Part shown: positions 3,230 through 38,555 of the stretch, one piece after another
How the letters are laid out: each line of letters begins with the position of its first letter
How positions within the stretch are numbered: position 1 is the stretch's first letter
The notes under the pieces: generated by a model
Seen by the model: the letters and a program-made list of their open reading frames with translations, nothing else
What the model was told of the DNA's origin: nothing
Database searches by the model: none
Assembly: GCA_964406075.1 (NCBI GenBank)
Contig: CAYOQI010000003.1
Coordinates: 140,718 to 204,717 of the forward strand
Direction: 5' to 3'
DNA from: an uncultured Pseudomonadales bacterium
Lineage (GTDB): Bacteria > Patescibacteriota > Microgenomatia > UBA1400 > PJMF01
Length of the DNA: 64,000 nucleotides
Made by a program: the position numbers and the translations under genes

Positions 3230-3743
3230 CTCTTATCAAGATAAGCATGTTTCTTCAGCCGGACAGTCACTGGTTGAAGTGATCGTGGCTGCAGCTGCAT
3301 TGGTGTTTGTTTTAGTTGCCGTTGTATCTGGTATGATTTTAGCTGTTCGCAACGCCAGTTTTTCCAATCGTCAAGCTCAAGCTACTAAACATACACAAGA
3401 AACGATAGAAATGTTTCGAAATTTTCAATTACTTCTTGGCTGGGAGGGCTTTCATCGGGAATTTGTCAATGATAGTGTCTCCACCAGTTTTTCTTATTGT
3501 TTGCCAGCAACTATTTCCCAGCCTGATCCTGAACTTGCTGCTACTGAATTCCATAATTTAGCTGCAGGTGAATGTGTTTCATCAAATTTTATTCCCGGCA
3601 CCCAATTTTTACGTCAAGTGAATGTACAACGTGGAACTGTAACTGAGCCAATTGAAATAGAAGTGATAGTCGTGTGGGCAGAAGGCGGACAAATGAACAC
3701 ATCCCGTAGTTCAGCAAATTTATACCCGAGATTTGAGAATTAG
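3204..3743 (+). CDS. Minor pilin-like protein
   Basis: Motif AGQSLVEVIVAAAALVFVLV (G-x-x-x-x-E plus a hydrophobic helix). GGAGG at 3191-3195 precedes GTG 3204. The ORF track starts at GTG 3189. Confidence 0.6.
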   Translation: MKATLYPINSYQDKHVSSAGQSLVEVIVAAAALVFVLVAVVSGMILAVRNASFSNRQAQATKHTQETIEMFRNFQLLLGWEGFHREFVNDSVSTSFSYCLPATISQPDPELAATEFHNLAAGECVSSNFIPGTQFLRQVNVQRGTVTEPIEIEVIVVWAEGGQMNTSRSSANLYPRFEN

Positions 3744-3769
3744 CTATTTATTCAGTTATTCGTATTCAC

Positions 3770-4309
3770 ATGGATTTTTTAAGAAAAAAAACTATTTTTT
3801 CAGGCGGTTTTACCATCATAGAAATGTTGATTGTTACGACATTGACGGTGCTGCTAGTTGTAACCGGCACTTCCCTGTTTTTGACGACAATTGTCGGTGG
3901 TGGTCGAGCAAATACATCAACAGTGGTAAAAACGAATGGTGATTACGCTTTGGGTCAAATGGAGTATTTGCTTCGAAATTCTATTGCGCTTGTCCCGCTC
4001 AATCCAGCTGATTTGACCAGTGCTTGTGCCGAAAATATGTCTCAGATCCGGCTGAAGTTAATTGATCAAGGGATTACTACTCTTTTCTCTGAGGCTGGGA
4101 AAATTGCTTCGAATTCTGGTATTTATCTCACTTCAGATTCGGTTCAACTGGTAAGCGGACCGGAGTTTGATTGTTCACGCAGTGCTGATCGCGCAATTAC
4201 AACCATTCGAATCTCTTTTACCCTGAGAAAAGGACAAGCTGGAACCGATAGATTAAGTGAAATTCAACAGCAAGCCTTCTCCACCTCAGTTACCGTCCGT
4301 AGCCAATAA
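3770..4309 (+). CDS. Minor pilin-like / pseudopilin protein
   Basis: Prepilin motif GGFTIIEMLIVTTLTVLLV. Confidence 0.7.
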   Translation: MDFLRKKTIFSGGFTIIEMLIVTTLTVLLVVTGTSLFLTTIVGGGRANTSTVVKTNGDYALGQMEYLLRNSIALVPLNPADLTSACAENMSQIRLKLIDQGITTLFSEAGKIASNSGIYLTSDSVQLVSGPEFDCSRSADRAITTIRISFTLRKGQAGTDRLSEIQQQAFSTSVTVRSQ

Positions 4310-28632: not shown

Positions 28633-28830
28633 TTACAAAAGTGTGGAACTAAAACTTCAGATAAGTAAAAGTAGTCCGGATAAACTACTACCGATCATCC
28701 CAAGAATCATGAGAATTGCAAATATTTGCAGTAGTCTTTGGCGTGTTTTTTTTGACATAGATTGATCCGTCTTAAAATTGTTATGCTAATCCATGTGGTT
28801 CACATGATAATTTAGTTTTATGAAATTCCA

Positions 28831-28874
28831 GATCCTTCGTTTTCAGTGATTACACTTGAGCACTCAGGATGACA
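28831..28874 (-). repeat. Solo copy of a structured ~45-nt repeat (GUCAUCCUGAG-hairpin-CGAAGGAUC) abutting the tyrS stop codon
   Basis: The minus strand reads UAA|UGUCAUCCUGAGUGCUCAAGUGUAAUCACUGAAAACGAAGGAUC. It shares both termini and a covarying central hairpin with the copies at 36080 and 36438. Confidence 0.7.
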
Positions 28875-30779
28875 TTAGTTTGATTTAATTTGAAAGAATT
28901 TTCGCTTCCCCACTTTAACGACATCGAGATTTACGGCTGCTACTTTAAAGTATGGATCGTTTGGATGTTCTTTTTGTCTATTTTTATATGTTAACTCAAT
29001 TGCCCCTTGATCAATCAGTCGACGTAACTCAGATTTACTTGCTTTTGGCTGAATCTCGACAAGAAGTTCAAGCAAAGTCAGTGATTGATCCTTGAGTTTT
29101 ATAATTGGGATATCATCCGGAGCTTCTTTTTTCTGAACAGTTTTTTCAAAAAACTGAGCGGCGGCTAAGGCATCAGCTTGAGTGTGATACATCTTGGTGA
29201 TACTGAATGCCAACTTCTTTTTAAATATCAGTGGGTTCATTCCTTTTTCCATTTCCTCTTTCATTTTTTCGATTGAAGGCTGAGGCTCATCTGTTAATAC
29301 TGTGAAATACAACAGAATCATGTCATCAGAAATTGACATCAATTTCCCGTACATGTCGTTTGGAAGCGCAGTCAATGCGATAAAGTTTCCAAAGCTTTTA
29401 CTCATTTTCCGACCATCAGTTCCAGCAATAATTGGAGTTGTTAACACCCATTTTTCTCGATTATTAAAGCTTTTTTGAAGTTGTCGACCCATCATCATGT
29501 TAAAAGTCTGATCATTGCCACCAATCTCAAGATCAACATCCAGTGCAACAGAATCATAGCCTTGCAGTAACGGGTAAATAATTTCATGACCGAAAATCGG
29601 TAAATTATTTTTCAATCGATCCTGAAACATATCTCGTTCAATCAATTGTTGAACGGTTGTTTGTGCCAGCAACTTCACCATATCAACATATGTCAGCTTA
29701 TCGAGCCATTCACCGTTGTAGACAATCTTAATTTTTGAAAAATCTAGTATTTTAGCTGCTTGTTCTTTCCAATCTTTAAAATTATCAAGAATTGCTTGAT
29801 CCGTCAGCATCGGTCGACTACTATCTCTGCCTGTAGGATCGCCAATTCGTACCGTTCCATTTCCGACCAACAAGAAAACCTCATGACCGAGTTCGGCAAA
29901 TTGTTGGAGTTTCCTGAGTACTACTGAGTGACCAAGCGTGAGCAGTGAACCAGTGGGATCAATTCCTAAATACACTTTGATCTTCTTTTTTTTCATCAAC
30001 GTTCGCAACGCATTTTTGGTGGGAAGAACCTGTGTGACGCCGCGAGTTAAAACTTCTTCCAGACGCAAATCTTCTGGCGACAACTGAGTTTTTATGTCAA
30101 TCTCACACTCTGGTGATGTACGAGAGACGATAAACGATTCTACTTTTGCCCCAAAGTTTTTTTCTAAATCAGTTTTCACTTTTTGCATTAAATCAATTAA
30201 TTCTTGCTCTGGAATTCCATCGAACGTATCGATGGGAATGAAAATGGAGTTGGTTGTTTCTGTCACTGCGGATGTTTTACCTTGTCGCCAAATCCAGTTT
30301 CGAGTTAACACCGTTTTTCCACTGGAGTATGCGAAAAAATGCTCCTCCATAAATTCGGGAAATTCTTCTCCTCGTGCAAAAAACGCATCTTCAGTATTTG
30401 TTCTTCTAACTTCGATGTCATCTTCTAACCACTCGATATCATGGGCTCCAATCGGAACTGAATGTTGGATAGAAATGGCATTAAAGTAATCAACTAGAGG
30501 TGAAATTCTTGGGAGTTCTTTTTTCTCAGTCAGTCTTTCGAGTAATGCGACGTGAGACGGTTTCACTGTATTTGCCATCCCATGTTTAGTAAACGCTTCA
30601 GTCCATTCTTGAAATGGTCGATTTTGTACTGTCGGTAGTTGCTGAGATTGTTCGACTTCTTTTGTTAACTTCGCCACAAAAGATTGAGCTTTTTTTTGAT
30701 CAATTCTTGTAGCAACTAACACTCCAATTTTGTAATTGGGAAAAAGTTCAAAGATTTCTGGTGAGACTGAAAATTTCAT
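28875..30779 (-). CDS. tyrS: Tyrosyl-tRNA synthetase fused to an N-terminal B3/4 (PheRS-beta editing-like) domain
   Basis: The C-terminal ~380 aa carry DPTGSLLTLGH (HIGH-type), IGDPTGRDSSRP, KMSKS and a C-terminal S4-like segment (KSELRRLIDQGAI). The N-terminal ~240 aa carry PLVDYFNAISIQHSVPIGAHDIE, which resembles the B3/4 motif seen in this window's own PheT (VIDITNYITHELGHPCHAFDYD). Confidence 0.8.
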   Translation of the reverse strand: MKFSVSPEIFELFPNYKIGVLVATRIDQKKAQSFVAKLTKEVEQSQQLPTVQNRPFQEWTEAFTKHGMANTVKPSHVALLERLTEKKELPRISPLVDYFNAISIQHSVPIGAHDIEWLEDDIEVRRTNTEDAFFARGEEFPEFMEEHFFAYSSGKTVLTRNWIWRQGKTSAVTETTNSIFIPIDTFDGIPEQELIDLMQKVKTDLEKNFGAKVESFIVSRTSPECEIDIKTQLSPEDLRLEEVLTRGVTQVLPTKNALRTLMKKKKIKVYLGIDPTGSLLTLGHSVVLRKLQQFAELGHEVFLLVGNGTVRIGDPTGRDSSRPMLTDQAILDNFKDWKEQAAKILDFSKIKIVYNGEWLDKLTYVDMVKLLAQTTVQQLIERDMFQDRLKNNLPIFGHEIIYPLLQGYDSVALDVDLEIGGNDQTFNMMMGRQLQKSFNNREKWVLTTPIIAGTDGRKMSKSFGNFIALTALPNDMYGKLMSISDDMILLYFTVLTDEPQPSIEKMKEEMEKGMNPLIFKKKLAFSITKMYHTQADALAAAQFFEKTVQKKEAPDDIPIIKLKDQSLTLLELLVEIQPKASKSELRRLIDQGAIELTYKNRQKEHPNDPYFKVAAVNLDVVKVGKRKFFQIKSN

Positions 30780-30829
30780 ATGGCTCCTGTGATTGTATCG
30801 TATGTTTGTTTTTTTTAAACGAACTGGTT

Positions 30830-30888
30830 AATCCCGCTTGGGTACTTCGCTCTTCGCTGATTGTTCAGTGTGAAATTTCAGCGGGATT
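30830..30888 (-). other. Long-loop hairpin between phhA and tyrS
   Basis: AATCCCGCT at 30830-30838 pairs with AGCGGGATT at 30880-30888 (9 bp) around a 41-nt loop. Confidence 0.4.
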
Positions 30889-30904
30889 TCGAACTTATTT
30901 ATTT

Positions 30905-31612
30905 TTATATATAGTGCTCAATCCATTGTTCGAGTTGGTCTAGAGATTCCAGACAAAATATTTTGTCGTGAAACTCATGGTGAGACTCTTTCATTGCTCC
31001 GATCACCTCTGGATTGAATGGTTCAATTACTACCATCCCTGACATAACCCGTTGTGTCTCAGCAAAAGATGATGCGATGCCTGCTCCGAGAATTTTAAGT
31101 TCTGAATTCTCTTTAATCATGCCGAACTCCACTGTGAACCACCAAATATGTCCCAGTTTCTTTCTCAACAGAGGTGGTGCTTTGAGCATGACTTTTGAGT
31201 ACGTATCAATAATCCGAGAGAATTGGGTATCCATTAAAAATGGAAGATGTCCAAAGCTATCATGAAAAACATCAGGCATTGGCGTGTAATCTAAACTCTC
31301 TTGTGGTCTGATATATTGTGTGATCATAAAATGATGGCTAGCTAAAGTTTGAAACCATGATTGACCATCAGCAAAAACTGTTGAAGTCGGATTCAGTTGC
31401 CACTCTGTTTCATCCATAAAAACAGTATTCAACCGATCAAAATTTGGAATTTCTTTCAGATTAAGTTGCAATCTGTTTTGGCCTTTTAACCACAACGAAC
31501 TCCCCCATTTTTCCATCTGAGGAAGCTGTCGAGAAAATAATTTTTCCCAAGTTCCATTTTCTTGAGTACTCCATATTTTCCATGCTGAACTACTTTCGTT
31601 ATTTTTTTTCAT
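30905..31612 (-). CDS. phhA: Phenylalanine-4-hydroxylase (aromatic amino acid hydroxylase), start re-assigned
   Basis: PDVFHDSFGHLPFL (the 2-His iron motif) and WWFTVEFGMI (Glu ligand region). The ORF-track N-terminal extension runs through the upstream terminator, so Met at 31612 (MKKNNESS) is the likely start. Confidence 0.8.
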   Translation of the reverse strand: MKKNNESSSAWKIWSTQENGTWEKLFSRQLPQMEKWGSSLWLKGQNRLQLNLKEIPNFDRLNTVFMDETEWQLNPTSTVFADGQSWFQTLASHHFMITQYIRPQESLDYTPMPDVFHDSFGHLPFLMDTQFSRIIDTYSKVMLKAPPLLRKKLGHIWWFTVEFGMIKENSELKILGAGIASSFAETQRVMSGMVVIEPFNPEVIGAMKESHHEFHDKIFCLESLDQLEQWIEHYI

Positions 31613-31624
31613 ATTTTCCTTTTT

Positions 31625-31653
31625 AAAATAAAAAACCGCCTGAGATGGCGGTT
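31625..31653 (-). terminator. Rho-independent terminator
   Basis: On the minus strand AACCGCC-AUCUCA-GGCGGUU is followed by a U-run. Confidence 0.7.
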
Positions 31654-31755
31654 TAACAAACACAAAAACCCATCTCTTCAATACAAGAGTTGATAGTAGT
31701 AATACCCGGTAGTTCGAATGATCAGTTTATTCATCATATTTTTCGTTGTTATTGT

Positions 31756-32034
31756 TTATGCTGCTGTCTGCGCATCTTCTTGGCAATCTCTAGCTGAAAG
31801 TAACGATTTTTTAACAGCATATAGTTCGTTTAGTTTTTTAAATTCTATTAATCTTTGTTCTATTAAGGCGTTAATTCTTGGGGAAATTTCGTTTCGATAA
31901 CTCGTTGAATCTTTTGATTTTTCTTGAAACTCAATGCTTTTTAGCCAGGTCATATGTGCGTCCCAAACTGTTTCGCGCTGTGCTTCAATTAATCTAATTT
32001 CTAGATCGTTAGTAAGAAGTTTTTCATTTTGCAT
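31756..32034 (-). CDS. Hypothetical coiled-coil protein (92 aa)
   Basis: An ORF with no recognisable motif. A terminator lies downstream. Confidence 0.4.
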   Translation of the reverse strand: MQNEKLLTNDLEIRLIEAQRETVWDAHMTWLKSIEFQEKSKDSTSYRNEISPRINALIEQRLIEFKKLNELYAVKKSLLSARDCQEDAQTAA

Positions 32035-32267
32035 ATTTCCTTTTAAATAATTAATAGGTTGGTTTTTGTTTACTACGTTGATTGACCCTCTTTCATTCCA
32101 GATGTTGCACTGTTTTTATGTCTCACCCGCCGACGCTCTTGATATTTCATCATGATCATTAGTCATGACTGCATTCAGGTTACTTTGGCGGATTGTTCTT
32201 CTTATCTGACTTTTAATCAATCATTATCAAAATATTTTTCTTTCGGTCTAGAATTTCCACTAACACG

Positions 32268-32295
32268 AACAAAAAACCCCGACTTGGAGTCGGGG
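32268..32295 (-). terminator. Rho-independent terminator after the SIMPL gene
   Basis: On the minus strand CCCCGAC-UCCAA-GUCGGGG is followed by UUUUUUG. Confidence 0.75.
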
Positions 32296-32433
32296 TGTAA
32301 ATTTCAAAATGTAGACAATGAAACTACTTCCCTCCTCCTTCGAGGTTGTTAAACCAAAAATAATAGTAAAAAGAAGTAGGTCTCATAAGTTGAGTGAAAT
32401 TGTACTTAGTTTTTTCAATTTCGCAATAATTAA

Positions 32434-33204
32434 TTAGTATGTCTCATAGCTCAAAGTCACACCATATTGATAGGTCGTGGAACCTGCTTCAATTTCTGTT
32501 TCGCCTCGGCCTTCGACTTGAACAGCATCAAAGTTAGCGGGACCCTTCATCAGTGGTGAGAGGACGTCGACTTGTGATTCGTAGACATTTACTATTCTTC
32601 CGAGCTTCATTCCTGCTAAGCCAGCGAGTTCACTTGCGTTTTGTTGGGCCTTCGCGATTGCTTCCTGACGAGCTTGTTTTTTCACTTCGTCTTCTTTTTC
32701 AGGGCTAAGTTTTAAGCTAATACCTGAAACTTGATTGACTCCAGCTTGAGTGGCTTGGTCAATGACCTGATTGACGACTTCAAAATCTTTTACACTCACT
32801 CGAAGTGAGGTATTGACCATGTAGCCAATTACTCTTCGATTTGCGCTGGTGTAGTCATATTCTGGATAAACGCTGTAGTTTTCAGTTTTTATATCTTTTG
32901 AATCAATACCAAGTGCTTGAACTCTTTCTTTTACTGTATTAATTACTGTATTTGCATCAGTTTGAGCGGCAGAAATGGTTGGTTTTCGGATCTCAATACC
33001 TAAAGAAATTTCAGCTACGTCTGGAATTGTGACGATTTCACTTTCACCTTGTACATCAAAAGTAGATTGTTTTTGAGTAACGGTCTGATTCACCGCAAAA
33101 GGTAATGGGCCAACAATTTTTGTTGTTAATAGTAGTGCAACGACCGCTGCAGCCGAGACAACTGCCCCGACCAGTATAGGTGTAAGAAATGATTGGGAAT
33201 TCAT
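32434..33204 (-). CDS. SIMPL/DUF541-domain periplasmic protein
   Basis: An N-terminal TM/signal segment, then FDVQGESEIVTIPDVAEISLGIE...ENYSVYPEYDY, the typical DUF541 layout. Confidence 0.7.
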   Translation of the reverse strand: MNSQSFLTPILVGAVVSAAAVVALLLTTKIVGPLPFAVNQTVTQKQSTFDVQGESEIVTIPDVAEISLGIEIRKPTISAAQTDANTVINTVKERVQALGIDSKDIKTENYSVYPEYDYTSANRRVIGYMVNTSLRVSVKDFEVVNQVIDQATQAGVNQVSGISLKLSPEKEDEVKKQARQEAIAKAQQNASELAGLAGMKLGRIVNVYESQVDVLSPLMKGPANFDAVQVEGRGETEIEAGSTTYQYGVTLSYETY

Positions 33205-33345
33205 AGATCTCCTTTATCGACTATCTACTTTAAAAATCATTATAGTACTCAAGTTGATTGATTGACTAGTTGAACTCATGGTATCTCTAGATACGCCAAA
33301 TGATATGAAATACTTACAGTGCATCGATGGTCTCAATGATACAAT

Positions 33346-36069
33346 GTGTTGAGAGAAATTATGAATATTTTAAAACGTTCACCTTCTTGGAATCACCTGA
33401 CTACTCAGCGTGTTTCTCTTCGTGGTGCGGGACGTTTTCAACTGCCCCGAGATAAAAAGTTGTTTTTTCTTCGTACATTACGAACACTTGCCATTTTGAG
33501 TGTGGTTGGAAGTGTATTAGGAAGTTTTTTCCTCTTGGGAGCGTTCGCCTGGTATTCCAAAGATCTTCCTCAACCAGGGAAAGTGGTTCGTCGAGATGGT
33601 TTCAGTACCCAATTTTTTGACCGAAATGGAAAATTACTCTACGACGTGTTTGCTGATCAGCAACGTACACCTATTCAACTCAGTCAAATGACTGACTACA
33701 TGAAGCAAGCCACCGTCTCAACTGAAGACAAAGATTTTTACACGCATGCGGGTTTTGATCCACTGACTCCGGTGCGGATTGCCTACAACTATGTGTTTCG
33801 AGGAGGACGAGTAGTCGGAGGATCGACTTTGACTCAACAGTTAGTTAAGAATGCTCTGTTGACCAATGAACGAAGCATCAATCGAAAACTCAAAGAGTTT
33901 ATTCTCGCGATTCAGATTGAACGTCAATTTACCAAAGATCAAATTTTAGAAATGTATTTAAATGAGATTCCCTATGGTGGGCCAGCCATGGGAGTTCAAG
34001 CAGCATCACAAATGTATTTCAGTAAAGATGCCTCCCAACTTTCACTGGTCGAATCAGCAGTATTAGCCGGATTACCTCAACGACCAAGTGCGTATTCCCC
34101 GTTTATTGGAAAAAAGGATGATGATGGTGTACCTTTATGGAAGGTTCGAGCAATCGGAGTACTTCGACGTATGCGAGAAGATGGGCACATCTCGGCTGAT
34201 TTAGAAACTACTGCAATTACCGAGCTTGATTCTGTTGTTTTTGAACGCCAACGTACAGATATTAAAGCACCACATTTTGTGTTTTACGCTCGAGAACAAT
34301 TAGAGGACATGTATGGTGAAGGTGCAGTAGAAGGGACTGGATATAAAGTCACCACGACACTTGATCTAGATTTGCAACAATCAGCGGAAACCATTGTACA
34401 AGAAGAGCTGGAAAAAGTAGCAACATTAAATATTACCAATGGTGCAGTCGTTGCAATGGATCCAGATACCGGTGAAGTGCTCACTATGGTAGGAAGCAAA
34501 GATTACTTCAGTGAAGAAATTGATGGTAATTTCAATGTGGCAGTCAATGGTCTTCGTCAACCTGGTTCTTCGATCAAGCCGATCACGTATTTATTAGCAT
34601 TAAAAAATGGCATGACTCCCGCCACGATGCTGATCGATGTTCCAACTACATTCGCTGTCAATGAAGATCCGGTAAACAAACCATATGAACCAAAGAACTA
34701 CGATGGAAAGTACCGAGGTCCAGTTAGCTTGCGGAGTTCGCTTGGAAGTTCACTCAATATCCCGGCAGTCAAAATTTTAGGAAAATATGGTGTACAAAAC
34801 ATGTTAGGGCTTGCTTTTGATATGGGTTTCCCTACCCTTGAGCCAACCAAAGAAAACCTCAGTAAATTTGGCTTAGCAGTAACACTAGGTGGAGGTGAGA
34901 TTCATTTGATCGATACTACTAGTGCGTACAGTGCTTTTGCCAATGGTGGTCACAAAGTTTCTCCAGTCTCGATTCTTAAAGTCGAAGATCGTGATGGAAA
35001 AGTTCTTTTTGAAAATCGGCCTGTCCAAGGAAAAGAAGTGATGTCAAAAGGTGAAGCGTTTTTAATGAATAATATCTTAAGTGATAACTCTGCTCGATTG
35101 CTTGCCTTCGGCGCCAATTCTCTCCTGAATACGGGAAAACCAATCGCAGTCAAAACCGGAACCACCAATGATCAGAAAGATAACTGGACGATCGGTTGGA
35201 GTAAGACCACCATGGTAGGTGTTTGGGTTGGAAACAATGACAGTACTCCAATGAAATCAGTAGCTTCTGGTATCACGGGTGCCTCTCCTATTTGGCGACG
35301 AGTAATGTTTGAAGCAATTGCTCAAGGTCGTGAAACGCCTGAATGGGAAGTTCCCTCTGATGTGCAAGAAGTAGAAGTAGATGAGATCTCTGGGTATCCC
35401 GCACATAGCGAGTTTCCAAAGAGAAAAGAGTATGTCATCAAAGGTACACTCCCAAGTGGGAAAGACCCAATTCATAGCAAATTAAAGCTCTGTCGAGGAC
35501 AAAATAAACTTGCGTCAGAGATTCGTGTAGCTAAGGGTGATTTTGACGAAAAAGAGTTCATTGCTTTACGTGAAGAAGATCCAGTTAGTCAGGATGGAAA
35601 AAATCGTTGGCAAGATGGAATTAATGCTTGGGTTTCAGATAAAGAAGATAAGTACAAACCGCCGACCGAGTATTGTGATAATGGTGGAAGTCAGGATGTG
35701 TATATTCGCCTGCTCCAACCTGACGATAAGAAGACATTCCAAGGAGAAGATATTGATATCGAAGTTGATGCAGTAAGTGTTGACGGAATTGCTCGTGTTG
35801 AGATTTGGGTGGATGATCAGAAAAAAGAAACGCTTACTTCCCGTCCATATAAAACTCGGGTGAATTTGCCAAAAGGTCGATATGAGATTTATGCCAAAGC
35901 CAAAGATAATAAAGGAAAAGACGTAGAGACCGGAAAAATTCGTATCGGAACTGGGAATGAAAGCTGGGAAGAACCTACTCCAACCCCGTCTCCAACCAAT
36001 AGCCCGGAGCCTACAAATACTCCCACTCCTGGCCCAACACTCTTACCTACGATTCTTCCGAGTCCGTAA
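33346..36069 (+). CDS. Class A penicillin-binding protein (GT51 transglycosylase plus transpeptidase) with a C-terminal Ig-like domain and a Pro/Thr tail
   Basis: EDKDFYTHAGFD and GGSTLTQQLVKN (GT51). SSIKP (SxxK), SLN and KTGTTND (transpeptidase). The C-terminus has IEVDAVSVDGIARVEIWVDD followed by PTPTPSPTNSPEPTNTPTPGP. Confidence 0.9.
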   Translation: MLREIMNILKRSPSWNHLTTQRVSLRGAGRFQLPRDKKLFFLRTLRTLAILSVVGSVLGSFFLLGAFAWYSKDLPQPGKVVRRDGFSTQFFDRNGKLLYDVFADQQRTPIQLSQMTDYMKQATVSTEDKDFYTHAGFDPLTPVRIAYNYVFRGGRVVGGSTLTQQLVKNALLTNERSINRKLKEFILAIQIERQFTKDQILEMYLNEIPYGGPAMGVQAASQMYFSKDASQLSLVESAVLAGLPQRPSAYSPFIGKKDDDGVPLWKVRAIGVLRRMREDGHISADLETTAITELDSVVFERQRTDIKAPHFVFYAREQLEDMYGEGAVEGTGYKVTTTLDLDLQQSAETIVQEELEKVATLNITNGAVVAMDPDTGEVLTMVGSKDYFSEEIDGNFNVAVNGLRQPGSSIKPITYLLALKNGMTPATMLIDVPTTFAVNEDPVNKPYEPKNYDGKYRGPVSLRSSLGSSLNIPAVKILGKYGVQNMLGLAFDMGFPTLEPTKENLSKFGLAVTLGGGEIHLIDTTSAYSAFANGGHKVSPVSILKVEDRDGKVLFENRPVQGKEVMSKGEAFLMNNILSDNSARLLAFGANSLLNTGKPIAVKTGTTNDQKDNWTIGWSKTTMVGVWVGNNDSTPMKSVASGITGASPIWRRVMFEAIAQGRETPEWEVPSDVQEVEVDEISGYPAHSEFPKRKEYVIKGTLPSGKDPIHSKLKLCRGQNKLASEIRVAKGDFDEKEFIALREEDPVSQDGKNRWQDGINAWVSDKEDKYKPPTEYCDNGGSQDVYIRLLQPDDKKTFQGEDIDIEVDAVSVDGIARVEIWVDDQKKETLTSRPYKTRVNLPKGRYEIYAKAKDNKGKDVETGKIRIGTGNESWEEPTPTPSPTNSPEPTNTPTPGPTLLPTILPSP

Positions 36070-36079
36070 ATTATTTTTC

Positions 36080-36129
36080 TGTCATCCTGAGAATCCAAGT
36101 GCGATAGCACGTGGAACGAAGGATCCCGT
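36080..36129 (+). repeat. Structured repeat copy, 10 nt after the PBP stop; forms the left inverted repeat around the GIY-YIG gene
   Basis: TGTCATCCTGAGAATCCAAGTGCGATAGCACGTGGAACGAAGGATCCCGT. Its reverse-complement partner is at 36438-36485. Confidence 0.75.
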
Positions 36130-36143
36130 CGTATACTGAAACA

Positions 36144-36434
36144 ATGAGGAAAGCATACAGTGTGTATCTCATGACAAATCAACGACATACAGTTCTTTAC
36201 ATAGGGGTAACAAGTGAGTTAGTCGTACGAGTGTGGCAACATAAAGAGAAGTTTTTCGGAGGATTCACTGCCAAATACAATGTAGATAAGTTAGTTTACT
36301 ATGAAGACTGGGATAATCCTAAAGATGCAATAGCACGAGAAAAAGAAATAAAAGGATGGACGAGGAAGAAAAAAGAGAAATTGATTAATGATATGAATCC
36401 TGAATGGAGAGATTTATACGAAGAAATTCAATGA
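36144..36434 (+). CDS. GIY-YIG nuclease-superfamily protein (UPF0213/COG2827-like), start re-assigned
   Basis: YSVYLMTNQRHTVLYIGVTSELVVRVWQHK is the GIY-YIG motif, and a later REKEIKGW segment is present. The Met at 36144 avoids the repeat. Confidence 0.8.
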   Translation: MRKAYSVYLMTNQRHTVLYIGVTSELVVRVWQHKEKFFGGFTAKYNVDKLVYYEDWDNPKDAIAREKEIKGWTRKKKEKLINDMNPEWRDLYEEIQ

Positions 36435-36437
36435 TCA

Positions 36438-36485
36438 ACGGGATCCTTCGCTCCTGGTGATTACACCTGGATTCTCAGGATGACA
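36438..36485 (-). repeat. Structured repeat copy, 6 nt after the pheT stop; forms the right inverted repeat around the GIY-YIG gene
   Basis: The minus strand reads UGUCAUCCUGAGAAUCCAGGUGUAAUCACCAGGAGCGAAGGAUCCCGU. Confidence 0.75.
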
Positions 36486-36491
36486 AAGGAT

Positions 36492-38555
36492 TTACTTCAG
36501 TTCTCCCACTAATGAAGCTTGATGGATTTCCTCAACAGTTTTAACAATATTTGATCGGATGACAGACGCATCTTCAGCATTCAGTTGCTTATCAGGAGAA
36601 TACATTTGGATAGTTGCAGTTCCATTATATTGATAAAGGTCTTTTAAATTTACACTATATATTGATGGTACAGATTGGATTGTCTCAATTACTCTCTGAA
36701 CGTGTTCAGTTTTTGGAATTTTAAATGTTAAGTCTTCAATAATGGGTGTGAATTTCAGCTCTGATTGTACGGCTGGATATGTTTTGGCGTACTGAATCAC
36801 AGTTCTCCAATCTATATCAAACACAATGACTTCAGTGTCAGGAATAAAGATCATGTGTCCGAGTACATTATCACCAGCTTTGAGTTCGACTTCAGAATTA
36901 TTCTTGGTTGGTACATACTTCAGTTTAGGAAAGTGAAGTTTTTGAAATAATGCTTCGACCATACCTTTTAGATAGCGTTGATCACCCCTGGCGGTTAACG
37001 TGAGATGAAATTCCTCGTATGGCAAAATACTACTGTCTTTATCTCGTGATGCACTTTGTGATCGATAGGTTTTATCAACTTCTCGTCCCATTTCAGATGG
37101 AAGGTAGACATTAGCAAATTCAAAAACAGCCAGCTCTTTGTGCTGAGGATTTTTCTCTAAAACGGTCAAATGTTGCGACCACAAGGTTCTGCGAAGATAG
37201 ACGAGATCATCAGTTAAAGGATTTTTGAGTTTAATATGAGTTTGTTCAATATCAGTTGCAGACTCAGAAAATCCAGATAACACGTATCGGGACTCGAGCT
37301 CTGATTGGGCTTTGTTGATCAATGAGTAGGTGTAGACTTCGTATCCACCAAGTGTTGCCCAAAATTCTTTGACCATGTGTTCAAGATCAAAATTGTCCCG
37401 ATTTCGAATGGTAGGAATTTCTCCGGTCATCAATGTACTGGGAAGATTGTGATATCCGTAAATTCGTGCAACTTCTTCGACAATATCAGCCGGAATTTGA
37501 AGATCTGGGCGAAATGTTGGTGGAGTGACAATGTAGTTTTGTTCACCGAGTTCGACTGTACACCCTAAGTTTTCCAATATCGATTGGATCTGAGATGGTT
37601 TTATTTCAACTCCTAAGTATTGGAGAATGGTGGAATGCTTCACTTCTACTGACTGAAGTGACTTTTTTCCAGGAAAATCGTCATAGACTTCACTAGCGAT
37701 TTGTCCGCCCGTTAATTCTGTTAGTAACTCAACTCCGCGTTTAAGAATGTCTTCGGCAAGATGTGGATCAACATTTTTCTCAGACAATTGTGCTGCCACT
37801 GTTCGAATAGCATGAGTCATGGAGGCAAAGCGAACCTTCTTCGGATCCAAAGTCTCAAGCCAGAACAACACATTTTTTGTCTCATCGCCAATTGAAGTGT
37901 TGGCAGTCCCTTTAATAGCAGGTAAATCAATAATTTCACCTTGTTCGTTTTCAAAAACTATTTCGCCACCGACCGTAGTGAACTCAGTTCCATCAATGAT
38001 GGCAAACTTTTTTCCGGCTTCTGCAATTTTTACAATAATCTTTCCGCCAGTTGCCATAACTTTGTCATAATCAAATGCGTGACAAGGATGACCAAGCTCA
38101 TGAGTGATGTAGTTGGTGATATCAATCACACTATCGTGGACATTGACTCCAATTTGCTTCAAACGCTTTTGCATCCACTCAGGTGAAGGTCTTTTTTCTA
38201 CATTGGAAACGACTTGGCAAATGATGCGTTTGCACAATTCGGAATTATTTACAATTTCCGGCAGAGGTTTATTCTCAGAGGTCTGAGATTGAAGAGCTGA
38301 TAATTGTAACGGTTTTAATGTTGATGGTATTCCAGCCTCGGTCAAAATCACCGCTGCTTCTCGAGCTATTCCTCGAACTGACATACTATCGACTCGGTTC
38401 GTCGTAACTTCAATGTCGTAGACACTCTCCCCTTCTATCTCATGAATGCGTTCGACTGAGGGGCCGGACAAAGAAAGAAATTTTTGAATCTCTGCTTCAC
38501 TTGCCGAAGTTTCTAAATGTTCGAGTAACCAAGAATGTGGGATGAGGATGTTCAT
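36492..38555 (-). CDS. pheT: Phenylalanyl-tRNA synthetase beta subunit
   Basis: N-terminus MNILIPHSWLLEHL, the B3/4 motif VIDITNYITHELGHPCHAFD, a B5 region, and synteny after pheS. Confidence 0.9.
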   Translation of the reverse strand: MNILIPHSWLLEHLETSASEAEIQKFLSLSGPSVERIHEIEGESVYDIEVTTNRVDSMSVRGIAREAAVILTEAGIPSTLKPLQLSALQSQTSENKPLPEIVNNSELCKRIICQVVSNVEKRPSPEWMQKRLKQIGVNVHDSVIDITNYITHELGHPCHAFDYDKVMATGGKIIVKIAEAGKKFAIIDGTEFTTVGGEIVFENEQGEIIDLPAIKGTANTSIGDETKNVLFWLETLDPKKVRFASMTHAIRTVAAQLSEKNVDPHLAEDILKRGVELLTELTGGQIASEVYDDFPGKKSLQSVEVKHSTILQYLGVEIKPSQIQSILENLGCTVELGEQNYIVTPPTFRPDLQIPADIVEEVARIYGYHNLPSTLMTGEIPTIRNRDNFDLEHMVKEFWATLGGYEVYTYSLINKAQSELESRYVLSGFSESATDIEQTHIKLKNPLTDDLVYLRRTLWSQHLTVLEKNPQHKELAVFEFANVYLPSEMGREVDKTYRSQSASRDKDSSILPYEEFHLTLTARGDQRYLKGMVEALFQKLHFPKLKYVPTKNNSEVELKAGDNVLGHMIFIPDTEVIVFDIDWRTVIQYAKTYPAVQSELKFTPIIEDLTFKIPKTEHVQRVIETIQSVPSIYSVNLKDLYQYNGTATIQMYSPDKQLNAEDASVIRSNIVKTVEEIHQASLVGELK

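Follow-up and report, generated by a model that had tools for sequence, protein, structure and literature searches.

A GIY-YIG nuclease gene between inverted hairpin repeats in a Patescibacteria genome: a probable Ssn/SRM locus

Ssn proteins form a family of ~94-amino-acid (aa), single-domain GIY-YIG proteins (CDD cd10448), and their genes are flanked by hairpin repeats, for which the general term is SRM and the term used in Neisseria is NTS (CGTCATTCCCGCGMAVGCGGGAATCYRG; Chenal et al., Nat Commun 2025, PMC11893778). Here, we describe a locus that very probably represents this system in the genome of a member of the Patescibacteria (candidate phyla radiation, CPR): a GIY-YIG nuclease gene, ssn, lies between two inverted cognate DNA hairpins, and a solo copy of the hairpin stands past the tyrosyl-tRNA synthetase gene tyrS. 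The locus was analysed within a 64-kb stretch of contig CAYOQI010000003.1 with a GC content of ~40%, referred to below as the window. Since a system described in 2025 accounts for the finding, it is no discovery; it adds an Ssn/SRM example from a reduced CPR genome.

The NTS was published as C-GTC-ATTCCCGCG-MAV-GCGGGAAT-C-YRG, and N. meningitidis carries hundreds of its copies, just 2% of them within genes (PMC11893778). The Neisseria protein SsnA binds the NTS as single-stranded DNA (ssDNA) only, and not as double-stranded DNA (dsDNA), as RNA or as the reverse strand, with cleavage on the 5' side of the repeat at a distance of a few nucleotides. The GTC triplet is important for cutting and the trailing C for binding, while the identity of the loop is irrelevant and its extension is tolerated. 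In N. meningitidis, SsnA lowered transformation by NTS-containing DNA. Regulation was one of the initial hypotheses in that work, and its authors noted the insertion-sequence-like appearance of the NTS-ssnA-NTS arrangement and compared it with the REP/RAYT systems (all from PMC11893778).

Two other described systems resemble the window locus in part. Repetitive extragenic palindromic (REP) elements, with their BIME or REPIN arrangements and RAYT genes, share with it a nuclease gene flanked by inverted extragenic hairpin repeats, many gene-less copies that often form inverted doublets, the lack of a target-site duplication and, as predicted for the window protein, hairpin recognition in ssDNA. 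However, RAYT is an IS200/IS605-type Y1 HUH transposase, whereas the window enzyme is a GIY-YIG nuclease. REPs are also species-specific, whereas the termini of the window motif are conserved across phyla. GIY-YIG homing endonucleases such as I-TevI and the Seg proteins have the catalytic domain in common with the window protein, likewise encoded by a small, apparently inserted gene. They act at a unique dsDNA homing site, whereas the Ssn-type target is a repeated ssDNA hairpin; in addition, the window protein has no DNA-binding domain, and its gene is flanked by its own putative target repeats.

The nuclease gene and its flanking hairpins

An exact search for GTCATCCTGAG-N(15-35)-CGAAGGATC returned exactly three matches in the window and none in 100 dinucleotide-preserving shuffles. 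No further paired copies were found in the window with relaxed and degenerate searches or with each terminus alone. The original prediction, made from the letters of the window alone, had listed these three structured repeats and placed them 0–10 nt past three stop codons, and both the sequences and the placement agree with our search: a T precedes every copy, and counted from this T, the gap to the stop codon is 0 nt for tyrS, 10 nt for the penicillin-binding protein (PBP) gene and 6 nt for pheT. It had overlooked the inverted orientation of copies 2 and 3 and the GIY-YIG open reading frame (ORF) between them. Since these inverted copies tightly flank the ORF, the segment forms a compact cassette in which the nuclease gene sits between two opposed hairpins and TGTCAT faces outward at both ends (Table 1). 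The cassette takes up the interval between the convergent housekeeping genes PBP and pheT, which is why both of its hairpins lie in the sense of the neighbouring gene and directly after its stop codon. Copy 1 is intergenic and has no inverted partner nearby, and it is the one solo copy in the window.

Table 1. Positions of the hairpin copies, the cassette and other features in the window
Feature	Position	Strand	Remarks
Copy 1, solo SRM-type hairpin	28831-28873	-	between tyrS stop (28875-28877) and 33-aa small ORF (28657-28758, -)
Copy 2, left SRM-type hairpin	36081-36125	+	GTC-ATCCT-GAG-(inner hairpin)-CGA-AGGAT-C; 18 nt before ssn ATG
Copy 3, right SRM-type hairpin	36442-36484	-	inverted relative to copy 2; 7 nt past ssn stop codon
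Entire cassette (ssn gene between inverted SRM hairpins)	36080-36485	+	fills the PBP-pheT convergent gap
ssn gene, 96-aa single-domain GIY-YIG nuclease	36144-36434	+	Pfam PF01541, SsnA homology
Tyrosyl-tRNA synthetase (tyrS)	28875-30779	-	Pfam; N-terminal B3_4 domain
Class A PBP gene	33346-36069	+	Pfam
pheT	36492-38555	-	Pfam
Hydrophobic 33-aa small ORF	28657-28758	-	between tyrS and recG
Weak small RNA matches on a terminator-like hairpin	32262-32436	-	hairpin at 32296-32276

Folding with DNA parameters gave one common structure for all three copies, in which ATCCT/AGGAT pairs as the outer 5-bp stem, GAG faces CGA further inward, and the innermost part is a hairpin whose stem varies between the copies. 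The DNA fold of copy 2 reached -9.6 kcal/mol with a z score of -3.5. All three copies share the frame T-GTC-ATCCT...AGGAT-C-(T/C).

The 96-aa product of the ORF matched Pfam PF01541 (GIY-YIG) over residues 5-78 with E=1e-13, and no other domain was found. In a search of a plasmid collection, the window protein matched a N. gonorrhoeae locus with a tblastn E-value of 1e-19, which lies below the limit of E<1e-10 that the authors of the SsnA study used as their criterion of homology (PMC11893778). This locus lies in one of two PLSDB entries, NZ_CP119142.1 and NZ_CP119140.1, which are 2.17-Mb N. gonorrhoeae chromosomes filed as plasmids. Because the ORF at the locus is 94 aa long, carries Y6, Y17 and E64 and is flanked by eight canonical copies of the NTS, it is identified as the SsnA ortholog, and it served as the reference for the comparison with SsnA. 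In a pairwise alignment, the window protein was 48% identical to the gonococcal ortholog over 90 aa, with no gaps and E=1e-29. Y8, Y19 and E66 of the window protein align with Y6, Y17 and E64 of SsnA, the residues mutated in the published work (PMC11893778). Across 37 homologs, Y19 and E66 were invariant, and Y8 was at least 90% conserved.

The locus shares with the described system a ~95-aa single-domain GIY-YIG protein that keeps the three mutated residues, a gene bracketed by inverted hairpins, a motif present in many phyla and the repeat frame H-GTC-AT...AT-C-Y, in which GTC is followed by a palindrome starting and ending with AT and then by C. Dispersed intergenic copies may be a further common trait, with one such copy in the 64 kb. 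Several observations weigh against the assignment. The published degenerate SRM pattern, HGTCWYN(0-2)YYVSBRHN(0-5)WNVSBRGN(0-2)RNCYNB, matched neither the three copies nor any other site in the window, although our script of the same pattern recognises the NTS consensus, the copies from N. gonorrhoeae and NTS-type repeats beside some of the 80 homologous genes described below (loci L161, L186 and L197). The window copies depart from the NTS in that GAG and CGA, which could form tandem G.A pairs, replace Watson-Crick pairs, and in that a nested 13-15-nt hairpin occupies the loop position, where the SRM pattern permits a short loop. Among the Ssn homologs tested in the published work, cross-specificity was only partial (PMC11893778). 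NCBIfam contains no family for the 96-aa protein, and the family has no solved structure, the PDB matches being limited to distant domains of the UPF0213 and UvrC types.

The differences between the repeats can be stated precisely. The outer stem ATCCT/AGGAT of the window copies is followed by GAG/CGA with invariant G.A and A.G positions, whereas the NTS pairs ATTCCCGC with GCGGGAAT entirely by Watson-Crick pairs; the window copies carry a nested 4+3-4-bp hairpin as their loop and measure 43-45 nt, compared with 28 nt for the NTS. The host differs as well, being a Patescibacteria (CPR) genome. Because the published pattern is a search heuristic derived from 29 genomes and gives no functional definition, we read the mismatch as a mark of a subclass and not as an exclusion: the GAG/CGA nested-hairpin repeats are treated as a distinct, putative motif subclass of the SRM.

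By homology to SsnA, the window protein would recognise the hairpin in ssDNA only, and on the strand that reads GTCAT...ATC. Recognition would rely on the outer palindrome together with the GTC triplet on its 5' side and the C directly after it, and the protein would nick the DNA on the 5' side of the motif, at a distance of a few nucleotides. The freely varying inner hairpin would occupy the loop position and be tolerated by the enzyme. In the cell, such an activity could serve the restriction of incoming ssDNA, the mobilisation of the repeats, or both.

CPR bacteria are thought to depend on DNA uptake, and a nuclease that restricts incoming ssDNA could therefore matter in this group. In addition, every new pair of an Ssn protein and its motif is a candidate reagent for the site-specific cutting of ssDNA.

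The repeat motif near homologous genes and in other genomes

The association between gene and repeat was assessed from the gene side in 80 metagenomic loci fetched with the window protein, using a generic detector that requires GTC, a 5-nt stem starting with [AT][CT], its reverse complement and then C. A hairpin was located within 200 nt of the gene in 68 of the 80 homolog loci, and on both sides in 46. Hairpin density fell from 5.9 per kb near the gene to 0.49 per kb farther off, and shuffled sequence gave 0.15 per kb. The nearest hairpins lay mostly on the + strand upstream of the gene and on the - strand downstream of it (42 and 44, versus 14 and 14 in the other orientation), which is the geometry of the window.

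We further searched the protein-fetched loci for the repeat itself with independent mismatches allowed in each terminus, and recovered 71 distinct copies. The leading G, T and C and the trailing C were 93-99% conserved in this set, and the G.A and A.G positions were nearly invariant. The outer stem covaried: one pair was C-G in 43 copies and T-A in 23, and another was T-A in 45 and C-G in 22. The original prediction had argued for selection on the hairpin structure, and this is borne out, with an outer stem that covaries at two pairs and an interior that can be any hairpin; three window copies are too few to prove covariation, which was shown here on larger samples from other genomes. The commonest outer stem near the homologs (loci L121-L200) was GTC-ATTGC-GAG, with 87 hits, and not the ATCCT of the window; ATTCT, ATCCC and ATTCC also occurred, and the GAG...CGA module was common to all.

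A short form of the repeat, GTCATYCTGAG-CGNAG-CGAAGRATC, was observed in several of these loci (L131, L144, L153 and others), with GCGNAGC at its centre. This centre corresponds to d(GCGNAGC), a DNA mini-hairpin of very high stability, and it fits a structure formed at the DNA level.

From the motif side, a scan for the exact termini with one genome per species found them in many phyla, with at least 120 species-representative genomes carrying them. The counts that follow refer to the matches listed, which comprise at least 120 loci with 136 copies and include Acidobacteriota, Chloroflexota, Patescibacteria, Firmicutes, Actinobacteria, Fibrobacter, Planctomycetota, Proteobacteria and others. 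After exclusion of six copies with a partial repeat inside, 130 copies had 129 different interiors; these were unconstrained by the search, and in 104 of the 130 copies they folded better than their own shuffles (Wilcoxon p=2e-15). The base before the motif was T in 77% and C in 22% of the 136 copies, and the base after it was T in 76% and C in 16%. A search of full-text literature for the motif sequence returned primer matches only. The motif class GTCAT-YYY-GAG...CGA-RRR-ATC, often with a nested hairpin, is widespread and missed by the published SRM pattern, so published censuses may undercount the repeats.

A GIY-YIG gene stood beside the repeat in only 2 of 120 motif-selected 8-kb loci; most copies are therefore gene-less, and the association described above is visible only from the gene side. 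This count also bears on whether the repeats are operators or other regulatory sites of the nuclease gene, with the solo copy being fortuitous. The copies do lie close to the gene, at 18 nt from one end and 7 nt from the other, and regulation was considered at the outset of the SsnA work (PMC11893778). Yet the 2 of 120 loci, together with the many copies that occur as gene-less doublets, speak against this, as does the lack of an encoded DNA-binding regulator in the cassette. We regard a regulatory function as very improbable.

Position relative to genes was determined with crude gene calls, which were checked on the window and then applied to the 136 copies. Only 24 of these (18%) lay inside called genes, compared with 81% coding sequence, and the repeat is thus strongly intergenic. 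In a related Patescibacterium (L224, 5661-5688), the called recG gene contains a canonical NTS of the Neisseria type (CGTCATTCCCGCGAAGGCGGGAATCCAG); a genic site is unusual for this repeat.

The same gene calls address the possibility that the repeat acts as RNA, either as a hairpin in the 3'-untranslated region (3'-UTR) with a role in the stability or processing of the upstream mRNA, or as a terminator of transcription. A 3'-UTR element was the lead idea of the original prediction, and the window itself favours it: all three copies lie in the sense of the gene that ends just upstream, and they form stable hairpins. REP hairpins protect upstream mRNA, and a passive effect of this kind on transcripts may occur here. 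Elsewhere, however, the 84 copies located within 200 nt of a gene 3' end showed no orientation bias (43 sense and 41 antisense), and the distance to a nearby stop codon had no preferred value, with a median of 81 nt and only 10 of 112 distances at or below 10 nt. The family as a whole is therefore not characterised by sense placement just after a stop codon. Rfam covariance models gave no match to the window copies, either with the gathering threshold or at E<=10 around the repeats, and none to the repeats of ten other repeat-rich loci. The strictly conserved unpaired GTC and trailing C correspond to the DNA recognition of the protein, and the RNA form of the NTS is not bound by SsnA (PMC11893778). 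We consider an RNA role very improbable. Of the functions proposed originally, a protein-recognition hairpin and the end of a small mobile element pointed in the right direction, whereas a 3'-UTR stability or processing element is not supported.

Intrinsic termination was rejected separately. Rho-independent terminators and 3'-UTR stabilising hairpins share with the window repeats a hairpin just past the stop codons of three genes, but no T-run or terminator-like site follows any of the three copies, whose 3' flanks read TGGAAT and CCGTCG/CCGTTG; the earlier statement that they are not canonical intrinsic terminators holds. The repeats further differ from such hairpins in their orientation, which in the wider census bears no relation to the upstream gene, in their conserved unpaired flanking bases and in their association with a nuclease gene.

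Mobility of the repeats and of the cassette

Copies from the same genome had near-identical interiors, while interiors differed between genomes. The similarity between same-genome copies began sharply at (T)GTCAT, with unrelated flanks outside it, and extended inward beyond CGAAGGATC. We then considered the 149 exact-terminus detector hits with enough flanking sequence, some copies giving more than one hit: an inverted partner was present on the 3' side in 62, with a median gap of 31.5 nt, and on the 5' side in 10, and 69 were solo. The excess of 3'-side partners and the sharp start at (T)GTCAT imply that the propagated unit is typically a tail-to-tail doublet with GTCAT facing outward. The window cassette is this same tail-to-tail arrangement with a gene in its spacer. 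No target-site duplication was evident around the doublets.

Under the Ssn/SRM assignment, the repeats would be DNA-level elements that spread within genomes mostly as tail-to-tail doublets with sharp outer GTCAT edges, in a manner that would resemble the REP/REPIN elements accompanying RAYT transposases. The position of the window copies just past stop codons would then follow from their landing in intergenic DNA.

Homologs of TyrS assign the window to Patescibacteria. Related contigs with 56-61% identical TyrS proteins, one of them labelled Microgenomatia UBA1400, keep the gene order pheS-pheT, convergent PBP, SIMPL, tyrS and recG. None of these syntenic Patescibacteria relatives has the ssn gene, and no SRM was found past tyrS or between pheT and PBP in them. 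Since both the cassette and the solo copy are missing, both insertions are lineage-specific; the relatives are too distant for a base-precise comparison with an empty site. In two of the relatives, the gap between pheT and PBP contains other genes: a Gp49/HigB-like gene and a helix-turn-helix gene, which together resemble a toxin-antitoxin pair, plus a 118-aa ORF in L225 (3959-4959), and a 113-aa ORF in L226 (3342-3789). This suggests that the convergent gap is a local insertion hot spot.

The sharp outer edges, the preference for an inverted partner on the 3' side and the absence from syntenic relatives provide descriptive evidence on the mobility of the cassette. They raise the possibility that it is an autonomous insertion sequence (IS)-like element in which the GIY-YIG ssDNA nuclease acts as the transposase, the doublets and solo copies being non-autonomous derivatives comparable to miniature inverted-repeat transposable elements (MITEs) or REPINs. 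Such an element would extend the Ssn/SRM explanation and does not exclude it. It is favoured by the outward-facing inverted hairpin ends around the gene, by gene-less doublets with the same geometry and ~30-nt spacers, by the unrelated outer flanks beyond the sharp similarity edge, by interiors that are near-identical within genomes and different between them, and by the missing cassette at the same site in the relatives. The authors of the SsnA study raised the same idea (PMC11893778). The resemblance to REPIN/RAYT supports the mobile-element hypothesis without proving it.

To our knowledge, however, no GIY-YIG transposase exists, and the nuclease alone comes without a demonstrated strand transfer. 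The absence of a visible target-site duplication also speaks against transposition, as does the fact that no cassette was seen to vary in presence or absence between close strains. Two identical Ssn proteins that were widely sampled each kept to one context in many samples, as would fit ssn genes that are stable or domesticated. An IS-like nature of the cassette can thus be proposed only tentatively.

A bolder and rather doubtful proposal is that SRM-ssn-SRM cassettes and gene-less doublets together form a true and still active family of transposable elements whose sole enzyme is a ~95-aa GIY-YIG single-strand nuclease, with the GAG/CGA nested-hairpin form as a widespread subclass that the published pattern misses. 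If true, active cassettes would represent a new mechanistic class of prokaryotic insertion sequence.

In one population, a difference was observed just past the downstream repeat of an identical ssn gene, where a ~770-nt segment is present or absent (L211 versus L215, L216 and L218, at ~3330-4170). The segment encodes a 70-aa ORF, and the difference may be a repeat-associated rearrangement.

Neighbouring genes

The tyrS product carries an N-terminal B3_4 domain, which is normally a domain of PheT. This fusion is common to 16 homologs with 51-64% identity; the sole taxon-named one among them bears the label Patescibacteria, and a syntenic contig is labelled Microgenomatia.

At 32262-32436 on the - strand, several weak, sub-threshold Rfam matches to small RNAs coincide with a strong hairpin that resembles a terminator (ACCCCGACT...AGTCGGGGT) and has a T run behind it (Table 1). 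This feature is most likely just an intrinsic terminator.

Finally, the hydrophobic 33-aa small ORF next to copy 1 (MSKKTRQRLLQIFAILMILGMIGSSLSGLLLLI) is kept in the syntenic relatives L222 and L225, and because of this conservation it is probably a real gene for a small membrane protein.

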